Source: an uncultured Chloroflexia bacterium | GTDB taxonomy: Bacteria > Chloroflexota > Limnocylindria > QHBO01 | Length of the DNA: 64,000 nt | Direction of reading: 5' to 3' | Assembly (NCBI GenBank): GCA_963825525.1 | Contig: CAWGTN010000001.1 | Span: 4,725-68,724 of the forward strand | Part shown: piece by piece, positions 6,151 through 63,779 of the stretch | Position numbering within the stretch: position 1 is the first letter of the stretch | How the letters are laid out: every line of letters begins with the position of its first letter | Notes under the pieces: model-generated | The model's input: the letters and a program-made list of their open reading frames with translations, nothing else | Told to the model about the DNA's origin: nothing | Databases searched by the model: none | Position numbers and translations under genes: made by a program

Positions 6151-7189
6151 ATGATAGGTACGCGGTCGCGCGGCTCGATCCACGGTAACCGGGCCTTGGC
6201 GGGATGGCTCTTCGTCACCCCCGCCATCGTCATCATCGGCCTGTTCGTACTCGTGCCGATCGTCATGGCCGCCTGGGTCAGCGTTTCGGACTGGTCGGGC
6301 ATCGGTCCGCCCTTCGCCGAGGGCGTGAATTTCGTCGGTGTCGACAACTACGCCGAGCTGCTCGGTGGAACCGGTCTCGCCACGCGAGATCTCGGCACCG
6401 CACTCCGCAACAACCTGTTCTACGTGCTCCTTGTCGTCCCGCTCCAGACCGCCATCGCGCTGGGGCTGGCGATCCTCGTCAACCGGCGGGTCATGCGCGC
6501 CCGCGGCTTCTTCCGCACCGCGTTCTACTTCCCCTCGGTAACCTCGTCGGTCGCCATTGTCGTGCTGTGGCTCTTCCTGTTCAGCGCCACCGGGCCGGTG
6601 AACAAGGTGCTCAGCTGGGTCTGGATCGACGGCCCGAACTGGTTCCAGGACCCGCGCGGCATCTTCCACATCGTCTTCGGGGCCTTCGGCATCACCGGTG
6701 CCGGACAACCCGCTCAGCGGTGCGAACTTCCTGGGGATCAGCGGCTGGGACTGGGTCTCCGGCCCGTCGGTCGCCATGAGCGCATTCATCCTCATGGCCG
6801 TCTTCACCACCTCGGGCACGTTCATGCTCCTGTTCATCGCCGCCCTCCAGCAGATCAACGCCGAGGTCGAGGAAGCGGCCATGACCGATGGCGCGAACGC
6901 CTGGCAACGCTTCCGGTACGTCACCCTGCCGATGCTCAAGCCGATCGTCTTCACGGTGGTCACGCTCGGCCTGATCGGGACATGGCAGGTCTTCGACCAG
7001 ATCTACGTGGGCACGCAGGGTGGCCCGGCGAAGACGACGCTGACGCCGGCCTACCTGTCGTTCAACTCGGCGTTCAACAACTATGACTGGCCCCGTGGCG
7101 CGGCCATCGCCTTCATCCTGTTCGCGATCATCGTGGTTCTCACCGCCCTCCAGCGGCTGTGGATCGGACGGACCGAGGTGGGACGATGA
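6151..7189 (+). pseudogene. Sugar ABC transporter permease (MalF-like), disrupted by a 1-nt frameshift near 6690-6700
   Basis: The N-terminal 180 aa carry several transmembrane segments up to ...GIFHIVFGAFGIT, and then the frame changes. The remainder (PDNPLSGANFLGISGW...EAAMTDGANAWQRFRYVTLPMLKP, with the EAA motif) reads in the +1 frame through to 7189. Confidence 0.75.
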
Positions 7190-8020
7190 CTCGACGCGAA
7201 GGGCTGTTGGCGTGGGCGCCGTTCGTGGTGCTCATCGTGCTGGCGACCATCTACATCGCGCCGTTCCTCGTGCAGGTGGTCAACTCATTCCGGCCCGACG
7301 CAGATGTCGTTCGCGAGCCACTGTCCCTCGGGCTCGGGTCGTGGACCGCGGCAGCCTACGACCGCTTGTTCACCCGCAGTGACTTTCCGTTGTGGACCAT
7401 GAACTCGTTCATCGTCACGCTGTCCGTCACGGTTGGCCGAGTCTTCTTCGTCAGCCTGGCTGGCTATTCGCTGGCGCGCATCCCGTTCCGGGGCCGCAGT
7501 GTCGTGTACGCCCTGCTCATCGCCGTCATGGCGGTACCGGGCGTGGTGCTGTTGATTCCGAAATTCATCGTCATCAACCAGCTCGGCATGTACGACTCGT
7601 ACTCCGGAATGATCATCCCCCTGCTGGCCGATGCTGCGGGCGTGTTCATCATGAAGAACTTCTTCGAGTCGATCCCCGTCGCCGTCGAGGAGCAGGCTCG
7701 CATCGACGGGGCCGGGCGTGTTCCGAATCTTCTGGTCCATCGTGCTGCCGATGTCATTGCCGGCGGTGATGACCATCGTCATCCTCTCGTTCCAGGGGTC
7801 GTGGAACGAGCTCAGCCACTTCATCGTGTCGACCCAGAGCACCGACCTGACGACGCTCACCAAGGGCGTCGCGCAGCTCGCGTCCGGGCAGCTGAGCCAG
7901 GGCTCCCAGTTCCCGATCAAGCTCGCCGCCGCGCTGCTCATGACCGTCCCCGTCGCCGTGGTGTTCTTCATCTTCCAGAAGCGGATCATGAACGTCGGTG
8001 CCGGCGCAGTGAAGGAGTAG
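7186..8020 (+). pseudogene. Sugar ABC transporter permease (MalG-like), disrupted by a 1-nt frameshift near 7705-7720
   Basis: MTRREGLLAW...EEQARIDGAG is in one frame and FRIFWSIVLPMSLPAVMTIV... in another. The break falls within a gggccgggc run. The ATGA start overlaps the upstream stop. Confidence 0.75.
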
Positions 8021-10408: not shown

Positions 10409-11128
10409 TCAAGGGGCGATCGCCAGACGCGGTCTCTTCCCGATGTTGGTTCGTTGGCGGTCCCCACGCTCGCGCCTGGGCTGGCGGGAGTCGTCACGGA
10501 CGAGTGCGGTGAGTGACGGGATGTCATCCCGCTCGAAGGCGTCCGTGTAGCGACCAAGCAGTGCCCGGTGCTCGGGACGCATCGGCTCGGGTGCGCCGCA
10601 TTCCTGCCGGGCGGCGAGCGTGACCCGGGCACGCTGGAGGGCGCTATTGACCGAGGCGACGCTCGTGCCGAGCAGCTCCGCCGCCTCGCTTGCTCGCCAA
10701 CGCAGCACCTCGCACATGAGGAGCACGGCGCGCTGGCGCGGCGGGAGGTGCTGGATGGCCACCATGAAGGCCTGGCGAACGGACTCCCGTGCGAGGACCG
10801 CCTCTGCAGGGTCGCCGCCCGATGACCATGGATGTGCATCGGGCGACCTCGGCTCGATCTGTGCCTCGGCATCCGTCGCAGTGCCGGGATCCATCGGCAC
10901 TGTCCGGCGCTGCGGATGGGCCAGCATGTCCAGGCAGACGTTTCTCGCGATGCGATACAGCCAGGTGCGCAGCGTGGCGCGGCCCTCGAATTGCTCGTGT
11001 GCGCGCCAAGCCCGCAGGAGCGTCTCCTGGACGGCATCCTCGGCCTCGAACCGGGAGCCCAGCACACGGTACGCGTAGCCGATCAGCTCTGCCCGGTACC
11101 GTTCCAGCGGAGCCTGGTGGATTGTCAT
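10409..11128 (-). CDS. ECF-family sigma factor (SigJ-like) with a C-terminal extension that may be truncated
   Basis: Region 2 (DAVQETLLRAWRAHEQF...TWLYRIARNVCLD) and region 4 (LPPRQRAVLLMCEVLRWRASEAAELLGTSVASVNSALQRARVTL). The tail ends in low-complexity SRQPRRERGDRQRTNIGKRPR. Confidence 0.8.
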   Translation of the reverse strand: MTIHQAPLERYRAELIGYAYRVLGSRFEAEDAVQETLLRAWRAHEQFEGRATLRTWLYRIARNVCLDMLAHPQRRTVPMDPGTATDAEAQIEPRSPDAHPWSSGGDPAEAVLARESVRQAFMVAIQHLPPRQRAVLLMCEVLRWRASEAAELLGTSVASVNSALQRARVTLAARQECGAPEPMRPEHRALLGRYTDAFERDDIPSLTALVRDDSRQPRRERGDRQRTNIGKRPRLAIAP

Positions 11129-11315
11129 GACGTGAGGGTGCATCGGGCGACGGACGGCGTGAAACACCGCCTGCCGATGGAGTCACAACGCCAGATGGTG
11201 AGTCCCCGGCCTCCACGGCCGATGACGTCGCGCGGCTAGACTTCATCGGACTCCGGAGGCCGGTTGCTGGCGTCCGAATGCACCTGAAGCAGGTCAATCC
11301 ACGTCTCCTTCGTCC

Positions 11316-12551
11316 ATGGATGTGTTGCAGCGTGACGTCAGCCGACGGCGGTTCCTCGGGATGGCCGGGTCCGCGGCCCTGGCGACGATCCTGGCTGCGT
11401 GTGGAGCCTCCGCCCGGAGCGCCGCTCCCTCCGCGACGCGTTCAGTGACGCCGAGCCGCAGCCCGGCGCCTCCGCCGACGGCACCGACTGCCTCGCCCAC
11501 GCCCTCACCCGCGGGGCTGAGCCTGCGCGATCAGGTCGCCCGGATGCTGCTCGTCGGATTCCGGGGCACGACGGCCGACGAGGCATCGGCCACGCTGGCC
11601 GACATCCGCGACCTGTCCCTGGGTGGCGTCCTGCTCTTTGACGTGGACGTGCCGACCCGCGCCCGCGTCCGGAACATCGTCTCGCCGACCCAGCTGCGCG
11701 AGCTCACCGCTGCACTGCACGATGCCGCGGGCGGTCGTGGGCTCATCGTCGCCGTCGACCAGGAGGGAGGGCGCGTTGCGCGTCTCGGTCCGGATCGCGG
11801 ATTCCCGGCGACGGTCAGCGCGGCCGGCCTGGGTGCCCGCGCGGACGTCGAATTCACCCGGGCCGCCGCCGTCGAGATGGCCGGGACCCTGGCTGACGCG
11901 GGCATCAACCTCAACCTGGCGCCGGTGGTGGATCTGAATCTCAACCCGGGCAACCCGATCATCGGCGCGCTCGACCGAAGCTTCGGTGCCGATCCGGAGC
12001 TCGTCGTCGCCCAGGCCGAGGCATTCATCAGCGGTCATCGCGATCTCGGGGTGCGAACGGCGCTCAAGCACTTCCCCGGTCACGGCAGTGCCACGGCCGA
12101 TACCCACCTGGGCGTGGTGGACGTCACCGGCTCGTGGCGAGAGGTCGAGCTCGATCCGTTCCGCCGGATCGTCGCCGACGGGCTGTGCGATGCCGTCCTC
12201 ACCGCCCACGTGTTCAACGCTCGATTGGACCCGGCGCATCCCGCAACCCTCTCCACGCCGATCATCACCGGGATCCTGCGTGACCAGGTCGGTTGGGATG
12301 GGGTGGTGATCAGCGACGATCTGCAGATGGGCGCCATCCGGCAGCAGTTCGGCTACGACGAGGCGGTGGCCCTGGCCATTGAGGCCGGCGTGGACCTCTT
12401 GACGATTGCCAACCAGCAGGTTTTCGAAGAGGGGATCGTGAGCCGGACCTTGGATCTGGTTGAAGAGATGGTGCGCTCCGGTCGCATCGGGGAGGATCGC
12501 ATTGCCGCCAGCGTGGAACGCCTGGATCGGTTCGTGAGCAGTCCTCAATGA
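11316..12551 (+). CDS. Glycoside hydrolase family 3 N-terminal-domain protein (NagZ / beta-hexosaminidase-like) with a Tat signal and lipobox
   Basis: RRRFLGMAG...LAAC signal. The KHFPGHG and DxxL catalytic-region motifs of the GH3 N-domain are present. Confidence 0.85.
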   Translation: MDVLQRDVSRRRFLGMAGSAALATILAACGASARSAAPSATRSVTPSRSPAPPPTAPTASPTPSPAGLSLRDQVARMLLVGFRGTTADEASATLADIRDLSLGGVLLFDVDVPTRARVRNIVSPTQLRELTAALHDAAGGRGLIVAVDQEGGRVARLGPDRGFPATVSAAGLGARADVEFTRAAAVEMAGTLADAGINLNLAPVVDLNLNPGNPIIGALDRSFGADPELVVAQAEAFISGHRDLGVRTALKHFPGHGSATADTHLGVVDVTGSWREVELDPFRRIVADGLCDAVLTAHVFNARLDPAHPATLSTPIITGILRDQVGWDGVVISDDLQMGAIRQQFGYDEAVALAIEAGVDLLTIANQQVFEEGIVSRTLDLVEEMVRSGRIGEDRIAASVERLDRFVSSPQ

Positions 12552-12657: not shown

Positions 12658-12836
12658 TGCTCGATAGTTCGCGGGATTCGCGCATGAGCACCGTTCGGCG
12701 TGCGATTTCCGCGATCAATCGAGCGTGTCGACGCTGGAACTGCACGCCGGCGGGCCACTCGTGCGGCCGGTCCATCGATAGATCGCGGGGATCGCACCTG
12801 AACAGCCGGTAATGTGAAATTCCCTCGATCTATCGT
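12658..12836. repeat. Intergenic module of four copies of a quasi-palindromic 14-16 bp motif (CTCGATAGtTCGCGGG-like), arranged as two inverted pairs about 48 bp apart. A homologous module lies at 62541-62711
   Basis: Motif copies are at 12658-12676, 12709-12725 (inverted), 12774-12790 and 12824-12835 (inverted). The second pair forms a perfect 10-bp stem, CGATAGATCG/CGATCTATCG. The sequence between the arms is also conserved against the second locus (CCGGT..GTGAA..TCCCTCGA). Confidence 0.6.
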
Positions 12837-13152
12837 CATGAGGCGCTCTTTCCACCCTTGTCGGCATCCGCGTCGGCATCGGCCTCGGGATCGGCGACAT
12901 CGGCATCGGCGTCAGGACGGCGACATCGGCGGCTGCGTCCTCGACGACCCGTCCAACGTTGGGACGGAGCCGCCGAAGATCTCCACCGGGAGGGGGCATG
13001 ACCATTGATGTTGTGGACAAGTTCGTGGACAGACCCCTTCCGAAATGCGATGGCCGCGGCCTACGATCCGCCCCGGTCCGTATCCTTGTCGTTCGGATCA
13101 ATCGCCCGGAATCATCCATCTCAATCAACTGAATCCTGGAGGGTGCCATCGC

Positions 13153-23277: not shown

Positions 23278-24078
23278 ATGTCTGAATCGCGGTGGGTTCG
23301 CATCGGCCTGCGCATCGCGACCGGGGCGGTGATCGTCTTTCTCTACCTCCCGCTCGTGATCCTCGTGATCTACGCCTTCAATCCGTCGCGCCTGCAGGCG
23401 TGGCCACCGACCGGGTTCACGCTCGATTGGTTCGGCGAGGCGGCAGGCAATCCGGCGATCCGTCGAGCGCTCGTGAACTCGCTGCTGGCCGGCACCGGCG
23501 CGACCGCCGTCGCCCTGGTCCTCGGGACGGCCGCGGCCCTGGCCGTGCAGCGCTTCGCGTTCTTCGGGCGCGACACGATCTCGTTCCTGTTCGTGCTGCC
23601 GATCGCCCTGCCGGGCGTGGTGACCGGGATCGCGCTGCGCACCACGTTCCAGACCGCGGGGGTCGACTTCGGCCTCGGCACGATCATCGTCGGCCACGCC
23701 ACGTTCTGCGTGGTGATCGCCTATAACAACGTCATCGCCCGCCTGCGGCGGCTGCCGCGCACGCCTGAGGAGGCGTCGGCGGACCTCGGTGCCGACACCT
23801 GGACCACGTTCCGCCGCATCACGCTGCCCGGCATGGGGACCGCCCTGCTGTCCGGCGGCCTCCTGGCGTTCGCGCTGTCGTTCGACGAGATCATCGTCAC
23901 CAACTTCACCGCCGGGCCGGGGACCCAGACGATCCCGATGTGGATCTTCGCGGCCATTCAGCGCCCCACGGAGCTGCCCGTCGTCAACGTCGTGGCCTTC
24001 GTACTCATCGTGGTATCGACCGTTCCCGTCTACTTCGCCCAGCGGATCAGCGCCGGAGTCGCGGGGGGCCGCACCTGA
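23278..24078 (+). CDS. potC: Polyamine ABC transporter permease PotC
   Basis: Six transmembrane segments and an EAA loop (EEASADLGADTWTTFRRITLP). Confidence 0.8.
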   Translation: MSESRWVRIGLRIATGAVIVFLYLPLVILVIYAFNPSRLQAWPPTGFTLDWFGEAAGNPAIRRALVNSLLAGTGATAVALVLGTAAALAVQRFAFFGRDTISFLFVLPIALPGVVTGIALRTTFQTAGVDFGLGTIIVGHATFCVVIAYNNVIARLRRLPRTPEEASADLGADTWTTFRRITLPGMGTALLSGGLLAFALSFDEIIVTNFTAGPGTQTIPMWIFAAIQRPTELPVVNVVAFVLIVVSTVPVYFAQRISAGVAGGRT

Positions 24079-57488: not shown

Positions 57489-58440
57489 TCAGCGGGCGCG
57501 GGCGGCCTCGCGCTCGAGGATCTGCGCCCGCTTGGCCTCGAACCGCGACGCCTGGGCGTCGAGGTTGGTGAGGAACGCGCGAAGCTCGGTGCGGCGCCGC
57601 TCGGCCGACGGGTCAATGCCCTCGAGTTCGAAGACGCCCCAATGCGCCAGGAGCGGCCAGACGACGTCGTCGTGATGGACCCGCAGGTCGTAGATACCGG
57701 CCTTCGCCATCTGGGCGGCCTTGCGGGTGAAGTTCACCATCCCTGATCCGGGCATCTGGAAGTCCATGATCTCGTCCGCGATCGCATGCACGGCGGCGGA
57801 CGGGATCGATCTTCATGGCCTCCGACAGCATGTCCCGATAGAAGACCATGTGAAGGTTTTCGTCGGATGCGATGCGGGTCATGATCCTGTCCGCCACCGG
57901 GTCGGACGAGTAGCGCCCCGTGTTGCGGTGGCTGATCCGCGTCGCCAGCTCCTGGAACGCCACGTAGGCCAGGCCGCGCAGGACGTTGCCACCATCATCG
58001 TGGTCATAGGCGGTCTGCAGCTGGTTCATGCGTCCGCGCTCCAGCGCAATCGGATCGATGTTGCGGGTCACCACGAGGTAGTCGCGCAGCACGATGGCAT
58101 GGCGCCCTTCCTCGGCGGTCCATCGGTTCACCCAGTTGATCCACGGGCCGTCGCCGCGGCCGAACATTCGGTGGATCTCGCGGTGATAGCTCGGCAGGTT
58201 GTCCTCGGTCAGGAGGTTGACCTCGAACGCGATCTGCGCCACGCCGCTGATGCGGGGCTGGTCCGGCGTCCAGGGATCCTTGTCGAAATCACGGCCCATC
58301 GAATACGGGATGTAGTCGTGTGGGAACCACTCCTTGGCCATGCCGAGGTGGCGGTTCAGCAGCATCTCGGCCGCGGGCTCGAGCTCGGTCAGGAGGTCGC
58401 GGGGAGGCGTGAAGGAGGGGGTCTCGATCTGGGTCGTCAT
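57489..58440 (-). pseudogene. Soluble acyl-ACP desaturase (DesA1/DesA2-type di-iron enzyme), disrupted by a 1-nt frameshift near 57790-57800
   Basis: Di-iron motifs EEGRHAIVLRDYL and DENLHMVFYRD are in one frame up to ...MKIDP. The normal continuation (AVHAIADEIMDFQMPGSG...) lies in another frame. Confidence 0.75.
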
Positions 58441-61450: not shown

Positions 61451-61562
61451 CGCCAGAGTCTAGGTGGGGTGGCAAGATATGCCCGTCCAATCCAGATCGT
61501 CGCGCCGGCTGCCTGCATATTTGCCGATCGGCGCGTCACCGCATCCCAGAGGAGGACCGCCG

Positions 61563-62501
61563 ATGGCGCCGCGCGTCATGACCGTCTCCGGACCGATTCC
61601 ACCCGAGAAGCTCGGCTTCACGCTTCCCCACGAGCACACCGCCATCAGCCTGTGGCACATCGCCAACCGCTGGGACTACTGGGAGCTCACGCCCGATGAC
61701 GATCTGATCATCGGCGAGCTGAGCGACTTTCGACGGCGAGGGGGAGGCACCGTTGTCGACCTCACCCTGCCGGGGGTGGGCCGCGACCCGGACCGGCTGC
61801 GCCGCCTGGCGAGCGCCACCGGGCTGAATATCGTGATGGGGTCCGGATGGTATCGGGAGGCGTATTACCCCGCCGAGATGAACGTCGACCGGCGCAGCGT
61901 CGACGACCTGGCGGCGGAGATCATCGGCGAGTTCGAGAACGGCGTCGGGGGAAGCGGCATCCGGCCCGGGATCATCGGCGAGATCGGCACCGACAAGCCG
62001 TGGGTCAGCGCGCGGGAAGAACGCGTGCACCGGGCCGCCGCCCGGGCCTCGAAGGCGACCGGCATGGCGATCACCACGCACGGCGTTCAGTCTGCCGTCG
62101 GGCTGGCGCAGCTGCGCATCTTCACCGAGGAGGGCGTCGATCCCTCGCGCGTCGTCATCGGCCATGCCGACTCGCACCACGACCTCGACTTCTACCTCGA
62201 GGTGCTCGATGGCGGGGCAAACCTGCAGTTCGATTTCCTGGGCCACCGGTTCGCAGCCGAGGAGGCCCTCGAGCCGCGCCTGGTCGAGACGATCGTCGAG
62301 CTGCTGGAGCGGGGCTATGGGCCGCAGATCCTCCTCAGCCAGGACGTCTGCCACAACCGCCAGCTCAAGGTCAACGGCGGCTTCGGCTACGTGTACCTCC
62401 AGCAGCATTTCCTGCCGACGCTGCGCACGGCCGCGGTGGGGGAGGGCGAGATCCAGCAGATGACCTTCGAGAATCCCGCACGGATCCTCACGATTCCCTG
62501 A
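61563..62501 (+). CDS. Phosphotriesterase-family metal-dependent hydrolase (PTE/PHP-like)
   Basis: GFTLPHEHT and TDKPWV...ITTHG...GHADSH...SQD metal-binding pattern. A GAGGAGG ribosome-binding site lies upstream. Confidence 0.8.
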   Translation: MAPRVMTVSGPIPPEKLGFTLPHEHTAISLWHIANRWDYWELTPDDDLIIGELSDFRRRGGGTVVDLTLPGVGRDPDRLRRLASATGLNIVMGSGWYREAYYPAEMNVDRRSVDDLAAEIIGEFENGVGGSGIRPGIIGEIGTDKPWVSAREERVHRAAARASKATGMAITTHGVQSAVGLAQLRIFTEEGVDPSRVVIGHADSHHDLDFYLEVLDGGANLQFDFLGHRFAAEEALEPRLVETIVELLERGYGPQILLSQDVCHNRQLKVNGGFGYVYLQQHFLPTLRTAAVGEGEIQQMTFENPARILTIP

Positions 62502-62540
62502 GGACGTTGGGTGCCAGTTGCATGGGCGTTCGATGTATGA

Positions 62541-62711
62541 GTCGAAATCGCGCGCAGGGCGGGTACTACGCGCTGATGCTGCGATATATCGAGCGGCTGG
62601 GAGCGTGAAGCGCGCCGCGGCGTGCTCGTCACGTGTGCCGGCGCTCGATAGATCGCGGGAACCGCACGCGGCCCGGCCCTCCGGTGAACATCCCTCGAAA
62701 TATCGCGCAGC
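62541..62711. repeat. Second copy of the intergenic motif module described at 12658-12836
   Basis: Motif copies at 62541-62557, 62579-62596 (inverted), 62643-62667 and 62692-62711. The region from 62643 aligns with 12774-12836 at about 65% identity. Confidence 0.6.
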
Positions 62712-62750
62712 CCCCGGGTTGTGGCATGTCACGCGTCCATACTTCGGCCC

Positions 62751-63779
62751 ATGCCGCCGTCACGCGACCCGATCACCGATCTGAAGCGGATCGCCTTCCT
62801 GCTCGAGTCTGCCCAGGAGCCGAGCTACCGGGTCCGGGCGTTCCGCAGCGCTGCCGCCACCATGGCGCGCATCGGAGCCGATGAGCTCGCCGCTCGGGCA
62901 GCCGCAGGAACGCTACGTGAGCTGACGGGCGTCGGTGAAGTGACCGAGCGGACGATCCTCGAGAGCCTGCGCGGCGAGGAGCCGGTGTATCTGCGCCGGC
63001 TGGAGTCCACGGAGGGGAAGCCGATGGCCGAGGGCGCCGCCGCGCTCCTGGACGCCCTCCGTGGCGATTGCCACGTCCACACCGAGGCATCGGACGGAGG
63101 CGCAAGCATCCGGGAGATGGCCGAGGTGGCGATTGAGCTCGGGCACGCGTACGTGGTCATCACCGACCACTCCCCGCGGCTGACCGTCGCGAATGGGCTG
63201 TCGGCCGAGCGCCTTGAAGCGCAGCTCGACGAGATCCGCGAGCTCAACGCCGAGCTGGCACCGTTCCGGATCCTCACCGGGATCGAGGTCGACATCAACG
63301 AGGACGGCTCACTCGACCAGGAACCCGAGCTGTTGATGCGACTCGACGTGGTCGTCGGCAGCATTCATTCGGCCCTGCGCTCCGAGTCACGCGCCATGAC
63401 CGTTCGCATGGTGACGGCGCTCGCCAACCCCAACCTCGACATCCTTGGTCATTGCACCGGCCGGATGGTGACCGGCAAGCGGAAGCGCCCCGAGTCGGCG
63501 TTCGACGCGGAGATCGTGTTCGCCGCCGCCGACCGCTTCGACAAGGCGGTCGAGATCAACTCGCGTCCGGAGCGCCTCGATCCGCCGAAACGGCTCCTGC
63601 GGCTGGCGATCGAGGCCGGCTGCCGCGTCGCGATCGATTCGGACGCTCACGCCCCGGGACAGATGGCATGGCTGGTCAACGGCTGCGAGCGCGCGTTCCT
63701 GTGCGGCGTGACGCCGGCCATGATCGTCAATGCGCTGGCGGCGGACGACCTCGTGGCCTGGACGTCGGCCCATCGGTGA
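62751..63779 (+). CDS. PHP-domain protein with an N-terminal PolX-like helix-hairpin-helix region
   Basis: N-terminal DLKRIAFLLE...LTGVGEVTE (HhH). The PHP metal-site pattern includes CHVHTEASDG...ITDHS...DSDAH. Confidence 0.75.
   Translation: MPPSRDPITDLKRIAFLLESAQEPSYRVRAFRSAAATMARIGADELAARAAAGTLRELTGVGEVTERTILESLRGEEPVYLRRLESTEGKPMAEGAAALLDALRGDCHVHTEASDGGASIREMAEVAIELGHAYVVITDHSPRLTVANGLSAERLEAQLDEIRELNAELAPFRILTGIEVDINEDGSLDQEPELLMRLDVVVGSIHSALRSESRAMTVRMVTALANPNLDILGHCTGRMVTGKRKRPESAFDAEIVFAAADRFDKAVEINSRPERLDPPKRLLRLAIEAGCRVAIDSDAHAPGQMAWLVNGCERAFLCGVTPAMIVNALAADDLVAWTSAHR

Follow-up and report, generated by a model that had tools for sequence, protein, structure and literature searches.

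Dispersed 178-nt palindromic modules in Candidatus Limnocylindria: putative members of a REPIN/RAYT-like repeat system with a helix-turn-helix/nuclease-fold partner

We analyzed a stretch of 64,000 nucleotides (the window) from contig CAWGTN010000001.1 of an uncultured Chloroflexia bacterium, which carries two intergenic copies of a 178-nt module, A at positions 12660-12837 and B at 62530-62707, each made of four CTCGATnnATCGAG-like palindromes (the arms). We favor, as the probable explanation, that both are solo, non-autonomous members of a repeat system resembling REPIN/RAYT, with a dedicated partner protein of helix-turn-helix (HTH) and nuclease fold encoded elsewhere. The module family together with its partner gene is a previously undescribed variant of the arrangement in which a repeat has its own enzyme: literature searches in an incomplete library turned up neither an account of repeats in Limnocylindria, a class of uncultured Chloroflexota from soil and freshwater, nor one of a PD-(D/E)xK partner of palindromic repeats. 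The window copies themselves are probably without a gene-specific role and functionally inert at their sites.

The first-pass annotation of the window had described a four-copy module of about 180 bp repeated 50 kb away, and this description holds, with 178 nt and four arms at each locus. The features of the two modules are as follows.

12660-12837, no strand assigned: module A, complete 178-nt unit of the main (CTCGATnnATCGAG) type, solo; nhmmer, aligned with 46 other copies
12660-12675, plus strand: module A arm 1, CTCGATAGTTCGCGGG; one mismatch to CTCGATAGATCGCGGG
12708-12723, minus strand: module A arm 2, CTCGATTGATCGCGGA on the minus strand; two mismatches to CTCGATAGATCGCGGG
12733-12764, no strand assigned: module A central symmetric element, GCTGGAA ... 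CTCGTGC (family consensus GCAcGAG ... CTCgTGC); columns 77-83 and 102-108 of the 47-copy alignment
12774-12789, plus strand: module A arm 3, ATCGATAGATCGCGGG; motif scan and inverted-repeat search
12822-12837, minus strand: module A arm 4, GACGATAGATCGAGGG on the minus strand; motif scan and inverted-repeat search
62530-62707, no strand assigned: module B, complete 178-nt unit of the main type, in the junction between a phosphotriesterase-family (PTE) gene and a PolX/PHP gene; nhmmer
62530-62545, plus strand: module B arm 1, degenerate, TTCGATGTATGAGTCG; alignments
62578-62593, minus strand: module B arm 2, CTCGATATATCGCAGC on the minus strand; motif scan
62603-62634, no strand assigned: module B central symmetric element, GCGTGAA ... 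GTCACGT; columns 77-108 of the 47-copy alignment
62644-62659, plus strand: module B arm 3, CTCGATAGATCGCGGG, exact match; motif scan
62692-62707, minus strand: module B arm 4, reading CCCTCGAAATATCGCG on the plus strand; alignment with the orthologous copy in L121

The individual arms are palindromes as well (CTCGAT-nn-ATCGAG), with their centers spaced by 50, 64, and 50 bp, both in the window modules and in the family. The starts of the 16-mers lie 48 nt apart within each pair at both loci, as first noticed, and the two 64-nt units formed by the pairs start 114 nt apart at A as well as at B. Unit 1 approximates the reverse complement of unit 2, so that the entire module is an imperfect two-fold symmetric palindrome. 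The perfect 10-bp inverted repeat singled out by the first-pass annotation, CGATAGATCG/CGATCTATCG, was recovered at 12776-12785 and 12826-12835. Allowing up to three mismatches, CTCGATAGATCGCGGG matched at 12660(+), 12708(-), 12774(+), 12822(-), 62578(-), and 62644(+), with one stray match at 23452; these seven matches compare with 1.83 expected, and none of 100 shuffles reached seven.

The two loci align over about 180 nt, nearly gap-free, with 74% column identity, and the conservation of the sequence between the arms that had been noted earlier was borne out, including the shared stretches CCGGT, GTGAA, and TCCCTCGA. When module A was compared to the window by blastn, it matched B at E=1e-8 and its own reverse complement at E=1.5e-6. 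By nhmmer, A scored 128.8 bits on the plus and 87.7 bits on the minus strand, and B scored 115.7 and 79.7 bits, respectively. At locus B the first-pass annotation had rightly seen arm pairs but undercounted the arms, since all four are present, arm 1 in degenerate form and arm 4 shorter by 8 nt than in a 97%-identical relative (L121). The versions of this arm in L121 (9935-9960) and in module B are set apart by an indel of 8 nt flanked by two TCGA repeats (CCCTCGATCTATCGAGATATCGCG versus CCCTCGAAATATCGCG), which looks like slippage inside the arm. No module other than A and B was detected in an nhmmer search of the window, and CCGATnnATCGG sites occurred in it at chance level only.

The search for further copies, which the first-pass annotation had suggested, showed that the two modules belong to a family. 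When one genome per species was scanned with a pattern for one unit, 16 stretches matched, 8 of which had exactly the spacing of the window; all 8 were full two-unit modules and came from metagenome-assembled genomes of Candidatus Limnocylindria (Chloroflexota), 5 of them from a single one. The named proteins nearest to the PolX of the window are likewise from Limnocylindria, which puts the window in this class. A metagenome scan with an inner-half pattern, followed by a profile hidden Markov model (HMM) search with nhmmer, brought the total to 62 copies, of which 47 were non-redundant and full length. In a scan of viral contigs, two stretches matched the pattern, neither of them a module according to the HMM. 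The 47 full-length copies are constant in length within 1 to 2 nt, with a mean column identity of 68% and no indels in the arm spacing. Copies found with an unbiased pattern received near-equal HMM scores on the two strands (e.g., 115.5 versus 111.4 and 80.0 versus 80.0 bits), indicating that the family consensus is two-fold symmetric. This consensus reads GCTCGATnnATCGAGC ... TTCAC ... CTCGATnnATCGAGC ... GCAcGAG / CTCgTGC ... GCTCGATnnATCGCG ... GTGAA ... GCTCGATnnATCGAGC.

Modules on the same contig are more alike (mean identity 0.74) than modules on different contigs (mean 0.62, maximum 0.72). Within one genome, copies are 62 to 80% identical, yet specific positions are nearly invariant; judged from this divergence, the copies within a genome are old. 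According to crude open reading frame (ORF) calls, many modules begin 0 to 50 nt past a stop codon, and the 47 copies lie between tandem (36), convergent (8), or divergent (3) genes. Compared with an assumed 65/17/17 split, a rough estimate, this distribution gives a chi-square of about 3.9 (2 df), and we thus claim no placement rule. One module (L014) has a lysA-like gene on one side and a histidine-phosphatase gene on the other, each with its 3' end toward the module. The neighboring genes have no common theme and include PolX, Ada-like, dnaJ, rpmG-secE-nusG, and glnA. Since the modules mimic operators and RNA hairpins, they are worth masking or annotating in Limnocylindria genomes.

At three loci (L083, L058, and L033), the roughly 710 nt that separate two modules contain a gene encoding a protein of 223 to 226 amino acids, the partner. 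As a single adjacent module pair could, by a rough estimate, arise by chance, we fetched further homologues. The partner family comprises 445 members at E<=1e-5, with a protein length of 220 to 250 amino acids, and in 10 of 11 loci, representing four genomic contexts, the gene has a full module on both sides. At each additional locus for which sequence on both sides of the gene was available, the gene had a full module on either side. The gene orders at the additional loci are given below.

L123 and L129: sigma-54 response-regulator gene, partner gene, ytxH-pcm
L124: partner gene on a contig of 978 nt, the ends of which truncate both modules
L125: partner gene in a ribosomal operon, between map and infA
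L126: amidohydrolase gene, partner gene, 330-amino-acid ORF
L127 and L128: response-regulator gene, partner gene, MFS gene

Main-type partner genes have the sigma-54 response-regulator gene on one side and ytxH-pcm on the other in L058, L068, L083, L123, and L129; for partner genes of a second type, the CCGAT type, the neighbors in L127 and L128 are the sigma-54 response-regulator gene and an MFS/HD_5 gene pair. The two types thus occupy opposite sides of one sigma-54-dependent response-regulator gene (L123, L127, L128, and L129). On the regulator/MFS side, L123 has a second site that holds a solo CCGAT-type module only (7048-7217). In every cassette, the partner start codon follows the end of a module at a distance of about 40 nt.

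The predicted recognition helix of the partner protein varies together with the arms of the flanking modules.

Helix SWST.AR (P0124, P0181, P0187, and P0194): arm type CTCGATnnATCGAG
Helix S(P/A)DTQ(Q/R)R (P0227 and P0239): arm type CCGATnnATCGG
Helix GWATYAR (P0173): arm type CTCCATGGAG

P0173 and P0227 are encoded on one 38-kb contig, each flanked by its own module type. Solo CCGAT-type modules were also present in L120, L123, and L126, and further solo modules share contigs with partner genes in L123, L126, L127, and L129. By our own count, there are 6 extra solo modules in about 71 kb within 10 kb of partner genes versus 2 in 105 kb around PolX. Two modules in L126, 1.3 kb apart, are 94% identical. 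This pair, the similarity of modules on the same contig, and the solo modules near the partner gene fit copying within a genome.

Some other features of the cassettes were observed. Ahead of the partner start codon, the stretch of roughly 40 nt that follows the upstream module contains GGTAA-N6/7-GGTAA (e.g., GGTAATGGGCCGGTAAGC) with all three arm types (L068 ~845-885, L083 ~1489-1529, L125 9962-10000, L126 9945-10000, L127 3966-4000, and L129 4960-5000), which may be the promoter of the partner gene or another protein-binding site. In L126, the order is module, partner gene, module, 330-amino-acid ORF, module; the ORF (10931-11923, within 10697-12162) has no Pfam match, lies between the two 94%-identical modules, which are of the CTCCATGGAG type, and may either be carried as a passenger or stem from a recent duplication at the locus. 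Most contigs with partner genes are very short (~1 to 5 kb), and several of them (L124, L029, L035, L048, and L049) stop within a module, so modules may be a cause of breaks in metagenome assemblies.

The N-terminus of the partner is an XRE-type HTH domain (Pfam HTH_31, 3.9e-7, 30.7 bits versus a cut-off of 27 bits), and the family profile matched solved structures of HipB, ClgR, and C-protein over residues 14 to 78. Similarity in sequence to any solved structure was confined to the HTH. In Pfam, the protein matched only HTH_31, HTH_3, and, weakly, LacI or TetR_N HTH domains, with no match to Y1_Tnp, and for the C-terminal domain none of Pfam, NCBIfam, PADLOC, PHROGs, and PDB sequences gave a match by sequence. 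AlphaFold2 modeled the full protein with a predicted local distance difference test score (pLDDT) of 87 and the C-terminal 148 residues alone with a pLDDT of 91.6 and a predicted template modeling score of 0.86. The core of this model is alpha-beta-beta-beta-alpha-beta (helix 13-21; strands 28-35, 40-47, and 52-58; helix 64-82; strand 86-93). Its top Foldseek match in the PDB was EndoMS/NucS (probability 1.00, E=2e-3), with further top matches to the restriction-like endonuclease of the R2 retrotransposon, R.BspD6I, McrC, Can2/Cdn1, Bax1, and viral cap-snatching endonucleases; the best matches were almost all PD-(D/E)xK nucleases. With these modest E-values, we assign the C-terminal domain at the level of fold to the PD-(D/E)xK nucleases. 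E110, D121, E134, R137, and K152 are invariant in 34 diverse partner sequences and, by eye, sit in the model where the E...D...(D/E)xK of this fold is expected, thus forming a putative catalytic motif.

Module presence differs between relatives at orthologous sites. At the PTE-PolX junction, L121, whose PolX is 97% identical, has a module at the same site as the window, while L118, L119, and L120, with PolX 83 to 86% identical, have none, the gaps between the two genes being 0, 8, and 51 nt. Likewise, L068 lacks a module that is present at the equivalent place in L083, L058, and L033. Modules are thus gained and lost, and module B is a lineage-specific insertion into an otherwise contiguous PTE-PolX junction. 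The empty sites are too diverged to define insertion junctions. A 167-nt PTE-PolX spacer in L122 (9211-9377), which the module HMM did not detect, holds CGATGGATCAGGC, CCATGGATCAGGC, GCACGTGAG, and TTCATGC and may represent either the eroded remains of a module or one of a different type in the equivalent position. Together with the roughly 60 copies in one class and the bracketed partner gene, the varying presence at orthologous sites supports one of the roles that the first-pass annotation had put forward, that of a miniature repeat element.

In the model that we propose, a dimer of the partner would bind the palindromic arms through its XRE-type HTH, and the nuclease domain would cut at or near them. 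Cutting would let modules be copied or moved in trans, much as RAYTs are thought to maintain REPINs. The partner gene would remain at low copy number, permanently bracketed by two modules, while solo modules build up in intergenic spacers. We suggest more tentatively, as a possibility that we hold to be somewhat short of probable, that an HTH/PD-(D/E)xK nuclease spreads four-site modules without an HUH or DDE enzyme, its recognition helix and the arms co-diversifying into orthogonal types. In one possible route of propagation, extruded cruciforms or hairpins would be cleaved and the host would then carry out repair. If the repeat-plus-enzyme arrangement indeed exists here with an unrelated type of enzyme, it evolved more than once, the family offers naturally matched combinations of recognition helix and target site, and the question arises of how a nuclease-fold protein multiplies a 178-bp palindrome.

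REPIN-RAYT is so far the main example of long-persisting repeats with a dedicated, vertically inherited enzyme in bacterial lineages. The modules resemble it in being dispersed, intergenic, and palindromic and in having a low-copy partner bracketed by repeats (PMC3116915, PMC3337134, PMC5581495, PMC3733652). In both systems, each partner variant has its own repeat type (here, three pairs, two of them on one contig), several types occur per genome, and no target-site duplication is seen. The partner locus described here may be inherited vertically, the main and CCGAT types lying at syntenic places and L125 and L126 representing other contexts. The enzyme of REPIN-RAYT and of TIRtrons is an HUH tyrosine transposase in every described case (PMC3733652, PMC5581495), whereas the partner described here has an XRE-type HTH and a PD-(D/E)xK fold and is not an HUH tyrosine transposase of the IS200/IS605 type. 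The unit also differs, being 178 bp with four 14-bp palindromes instead of a doublet of 20- to 40-nt GTAG-tagged REPs, and no GTAG or CGTC tag was seen at the module ends in the 47-copy alignment. Moreover, the modules are conserved by sequence, with no sign of a maintained hairpin.

TIRtrons consist of TIRYT tyrosine transposases with long, sometimes double-palindromic terminal inverted repeats that form repeat families (PMC3733652). They share with the system studied here a single gene flanked by long palindromic repeats, as well as moderately abundant solo families, and differ in the enzyme, an HUH tyrosine transposase instead of a nuclease fold with an HTH. Like miniature inverted-repeat transposable elements (MITEs), Correia/NEMIS, ERIC/IRU, RUP, and BIMEs, the modules measure 100 to 200 bp, are intergenic and palindromic overall, and are present or absent between relatives; like BIMEs, they contain internal sub-repeats resembling protein sites in alternating orientation. 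Unlike MITEs and these intergenic repeats, they showed no target-site duplication, and their copies are old within a genome and yet near-invariant at specific positions. We found no insertion sequence that encodes a DDE transposase and shares the module ends, as a parent element would. The outer arms do form inverted repeats, and the sole associated gene is bracketed by whole modules, not by half-modules.

The PD-(D/E)xK fold is used by mobile elements, namely, R2 and TnsA. The predicted core fold of the partner is like that of PD-(D/E)xK nucleases with a DNA-binding domain (type II restriction enzymes, NucS/EndoMS, R2, and TnsA of Tn7), including, in the model, conserved acidic residues on strands beta2 and beta3. 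The sites predicted for the partner are palindromic, as are the recognition sequences of type IIP restriction enzymes. In contrast to those systems, no methyltransferase, reverse transcriptase, or DDE partner is encoded next to the gene, which is the only one between the modules.

Several observations weigh against the REPIN/RAYT-like interpretation. Binding of the partner to the arms is deduced from co-location and from matching variation in only three types, and in the CTCCATGGAG type the half-sites are spaced by 10 bp versus 14 bp in the main type, a difference that a plain switch in specificity does not readily accommodate. Matches to the fold are weak (best E=2e-3, template modeling scores of 0.43 to 0.47), and the catalytic motif was assigned by eye. 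PD-(D/E)xK enzymes cut DNA and are not known to accomplish strand transfer by themselves. Among the 47 copies, we found no direct repeat at a consistent offset that would represent a target-site duplication and no defined junction. A tblastn search of the window found no partner gene, and the window copies are old, 62 to 74% identical to each other. Finally, partner proteins only 57 to 66% identical still have their flanking modules in the same syntenic position, and this retention is as compatible with a host-level or autoregulatory role as with a selfish one.

We weighed three other explanations. According to the first, the whole module-gene-module cassette of 1.1 to 1.2 kb is mobile, like an insertion sequence with palindromic ends, and solo modules, never mobile by themselves, are remnants comparable to solo long terminal repeats, left when recombination between flanking modules deleted the gene. 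The four genomic contexts of the cassette, among them the conserved ribosomal operon, speak for it, as does the similarity of flanking modules (0.78 to 0.80 in L123 and L058), which could therefore recombine; being palindromic, a module can serve as a direct repeat and equally as an inverted one. Against it, partner genes are rare compared to modules (445 members versus more than 8000 matches for a single-copy housekeeping-type gene of the class), and most cassettes lie at only two syntenic places, flanking the one sigma-54 response-regulator gene, which looks like vertical inheritance rather than frequent transposition. The near-identical module pair of L126, moreover, flanks an unrelated ORF. 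We regard a mobile cassette as unlikely. An alternative to which we give still less weight is that modules are four-operator arrays for the partner acting as a global XRE-family factor, which would regulate itself and a regulon of PolX, ada, dnaJ, and others, with its nuclease-like domain serving oligomerization or ligand sensing. Here the 14-bp palindromes typical of dimeric HTH operators, the strict 50-, 64-, and 50-bp spacing without indels in 47 copies, and the constant distance of about 40 nt to the partner start codon are in favor, as are copies directly upstream of DNA repair or stress genes (PolX in the window, Ada-like in L005, and dnaJ in L015). However, 8 of the 47 copies (L014, L059, L082, L088, L090, and others) lie between convergent genes and have no downstream gene, the PolX orthologues of three relatives abut their upstream gene with no module, the neighboring genes lack a common function, and the acidic residues expected for an active nuclease are invariant. 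The convergent copies and the module-free PolX junctions also speak against the shared regulon site that the first-pass annotation had considered, if taken as a general role. To our knowledge, the arm motif bears no convincing resemblance to the LexA SOS box, the RecA-NDp/PafBC promoter, CIRCE, HAIR, ClgR, RDRM/DdrO, FNR/CRP, or parS sites. Among the ideas of that annotation, a nucleoprotein site fits best, since the arms resemble, in their sequence, sites of dimeric HTH proteins.

The remaining alternative, which we consider very improbable, is that the module acts as RNA, forming an imperfect hairpin of about 85 bp in 3' untranslated regions or operon spacers and serving as a terminator, RNase III site, or stabilizer in either orientation. 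RNA hairpin roles of this sort have been proposed for REP, BIME, and ERIC elements. The position of many copies shortly after a stop codon and the symmetry, which permits function in both orientations, agree with this, and module A folds at -101.4 kcal/mol (z=-4.9 versus shuffles). Module B, however, barely exceeds its shuffles (z=-1.95), three copies lie between divergent genes, and the RNAalifold consensus is merely the palindrome itself. A hairpin would also need no strict conservation of its stem sequence. Over 90 symmetric column pairs, Watson-Crick complementarity was 52.6 versus 51.7 expected from column composition, and complementarity within a copy equaled that between different copies. 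A 53-pair structure was paired in 79.7% of cells in the 47 copies versus 77.6% in shuffles, while compensatory pairs, changed on both sides, numbered 26 versus 23.2 in shuffles (58 of 500 shuffles were as high). The two central bases of each arm were unpaired in 25 to 28 of the 47 copies. By mutual information, the most strongly covarying columns (17/167, 53/132, and 68-69/116-117) are arm flanks that covary in the direct sense as well, which, on this alignment, marks a subfamily or lineage signal and not compensation. When 30 copies between co-directional genes were oriented by transcription, G·T and A·C mismatches did not differ (221 versus 203, p=0.41), giving no excess of G·U on the sense strand. 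The covariation that the first-pass annotation had proposed to look for was thus not seen beyond the subfamily level in any of four tests. Rfam at the gathering score found in the window only a tRNA and ASdes, both elsewhere than the modules, and in E-value mode it gave only chance-level matches to microRNA precursors at the two loci. Scans for sigma-70-type promoters and intrinsic terminators, the latter with a U tract, predicted none at either locus. We conclude that conservation acts on the specific DNA sequence and not on pairing, and the small structured RNA envisaged at first is not supported.

The genes next to the two window copies are listed below.

11316-12551, plus strand: GH3 glycosidase gene (Pfam Glyco_hydro_3, 2e-63), stop codon 108 nt before module A
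61464-62501, plus strand: phosphotriesterase-family gene (Pfam PTE, 4.4e-67), stop codon 28 nt before module B
62751-63779, plus strand: PolX-like gene with HHH_8 and PHP domains (Pfam), adjoining the PTE gene where the module is absent

Both copies had been said to sit immediately upstream of genes. This is correct for B, which ends 14 to 44 nt upstream of the PolX-like gene, depending on whether that gene starts at 62721 or 62751, and incorrect for A, which ends 316 nt ahead of a weakly supported ORF of 114 amino acids. The intervening stretch of about 310 nt (12838-13152) has no convincing coding frame. Downstream of module A, it contains a run of short CGGCATCGGC-like repeats (12859-12939) and a 15-nt inverted repeat (12926-12940 with 12962-12976). 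On the minus strand, a low-complexity Asp/Ala-rich ORF stops exactly at the edge of module A (stop codon 12838-12840). Between module B and PolX (62716-62750), the window and L122 have in common a CCATACT located 7 to 8 nt before the PolX ATG. It may be a -10-like element of a leaderless or near-leaderless transcript, in which case PolX may own a promoter just downstream of module B. Elsewhere in the window, at 58043-58110 on the plus strand, the Rfam match to ASdes, a small RNA of Mycobacterium tuberculosis, scored 56.5 bits versus a gathering score of 40. Judged by synteny with L121, it falls in the region of an acyl-ACP desaturase homologue (FA_desaturase_2) and probably reflects conserved desaturase coding sequence, not a small RNA gene in a Chloroflexota genome.

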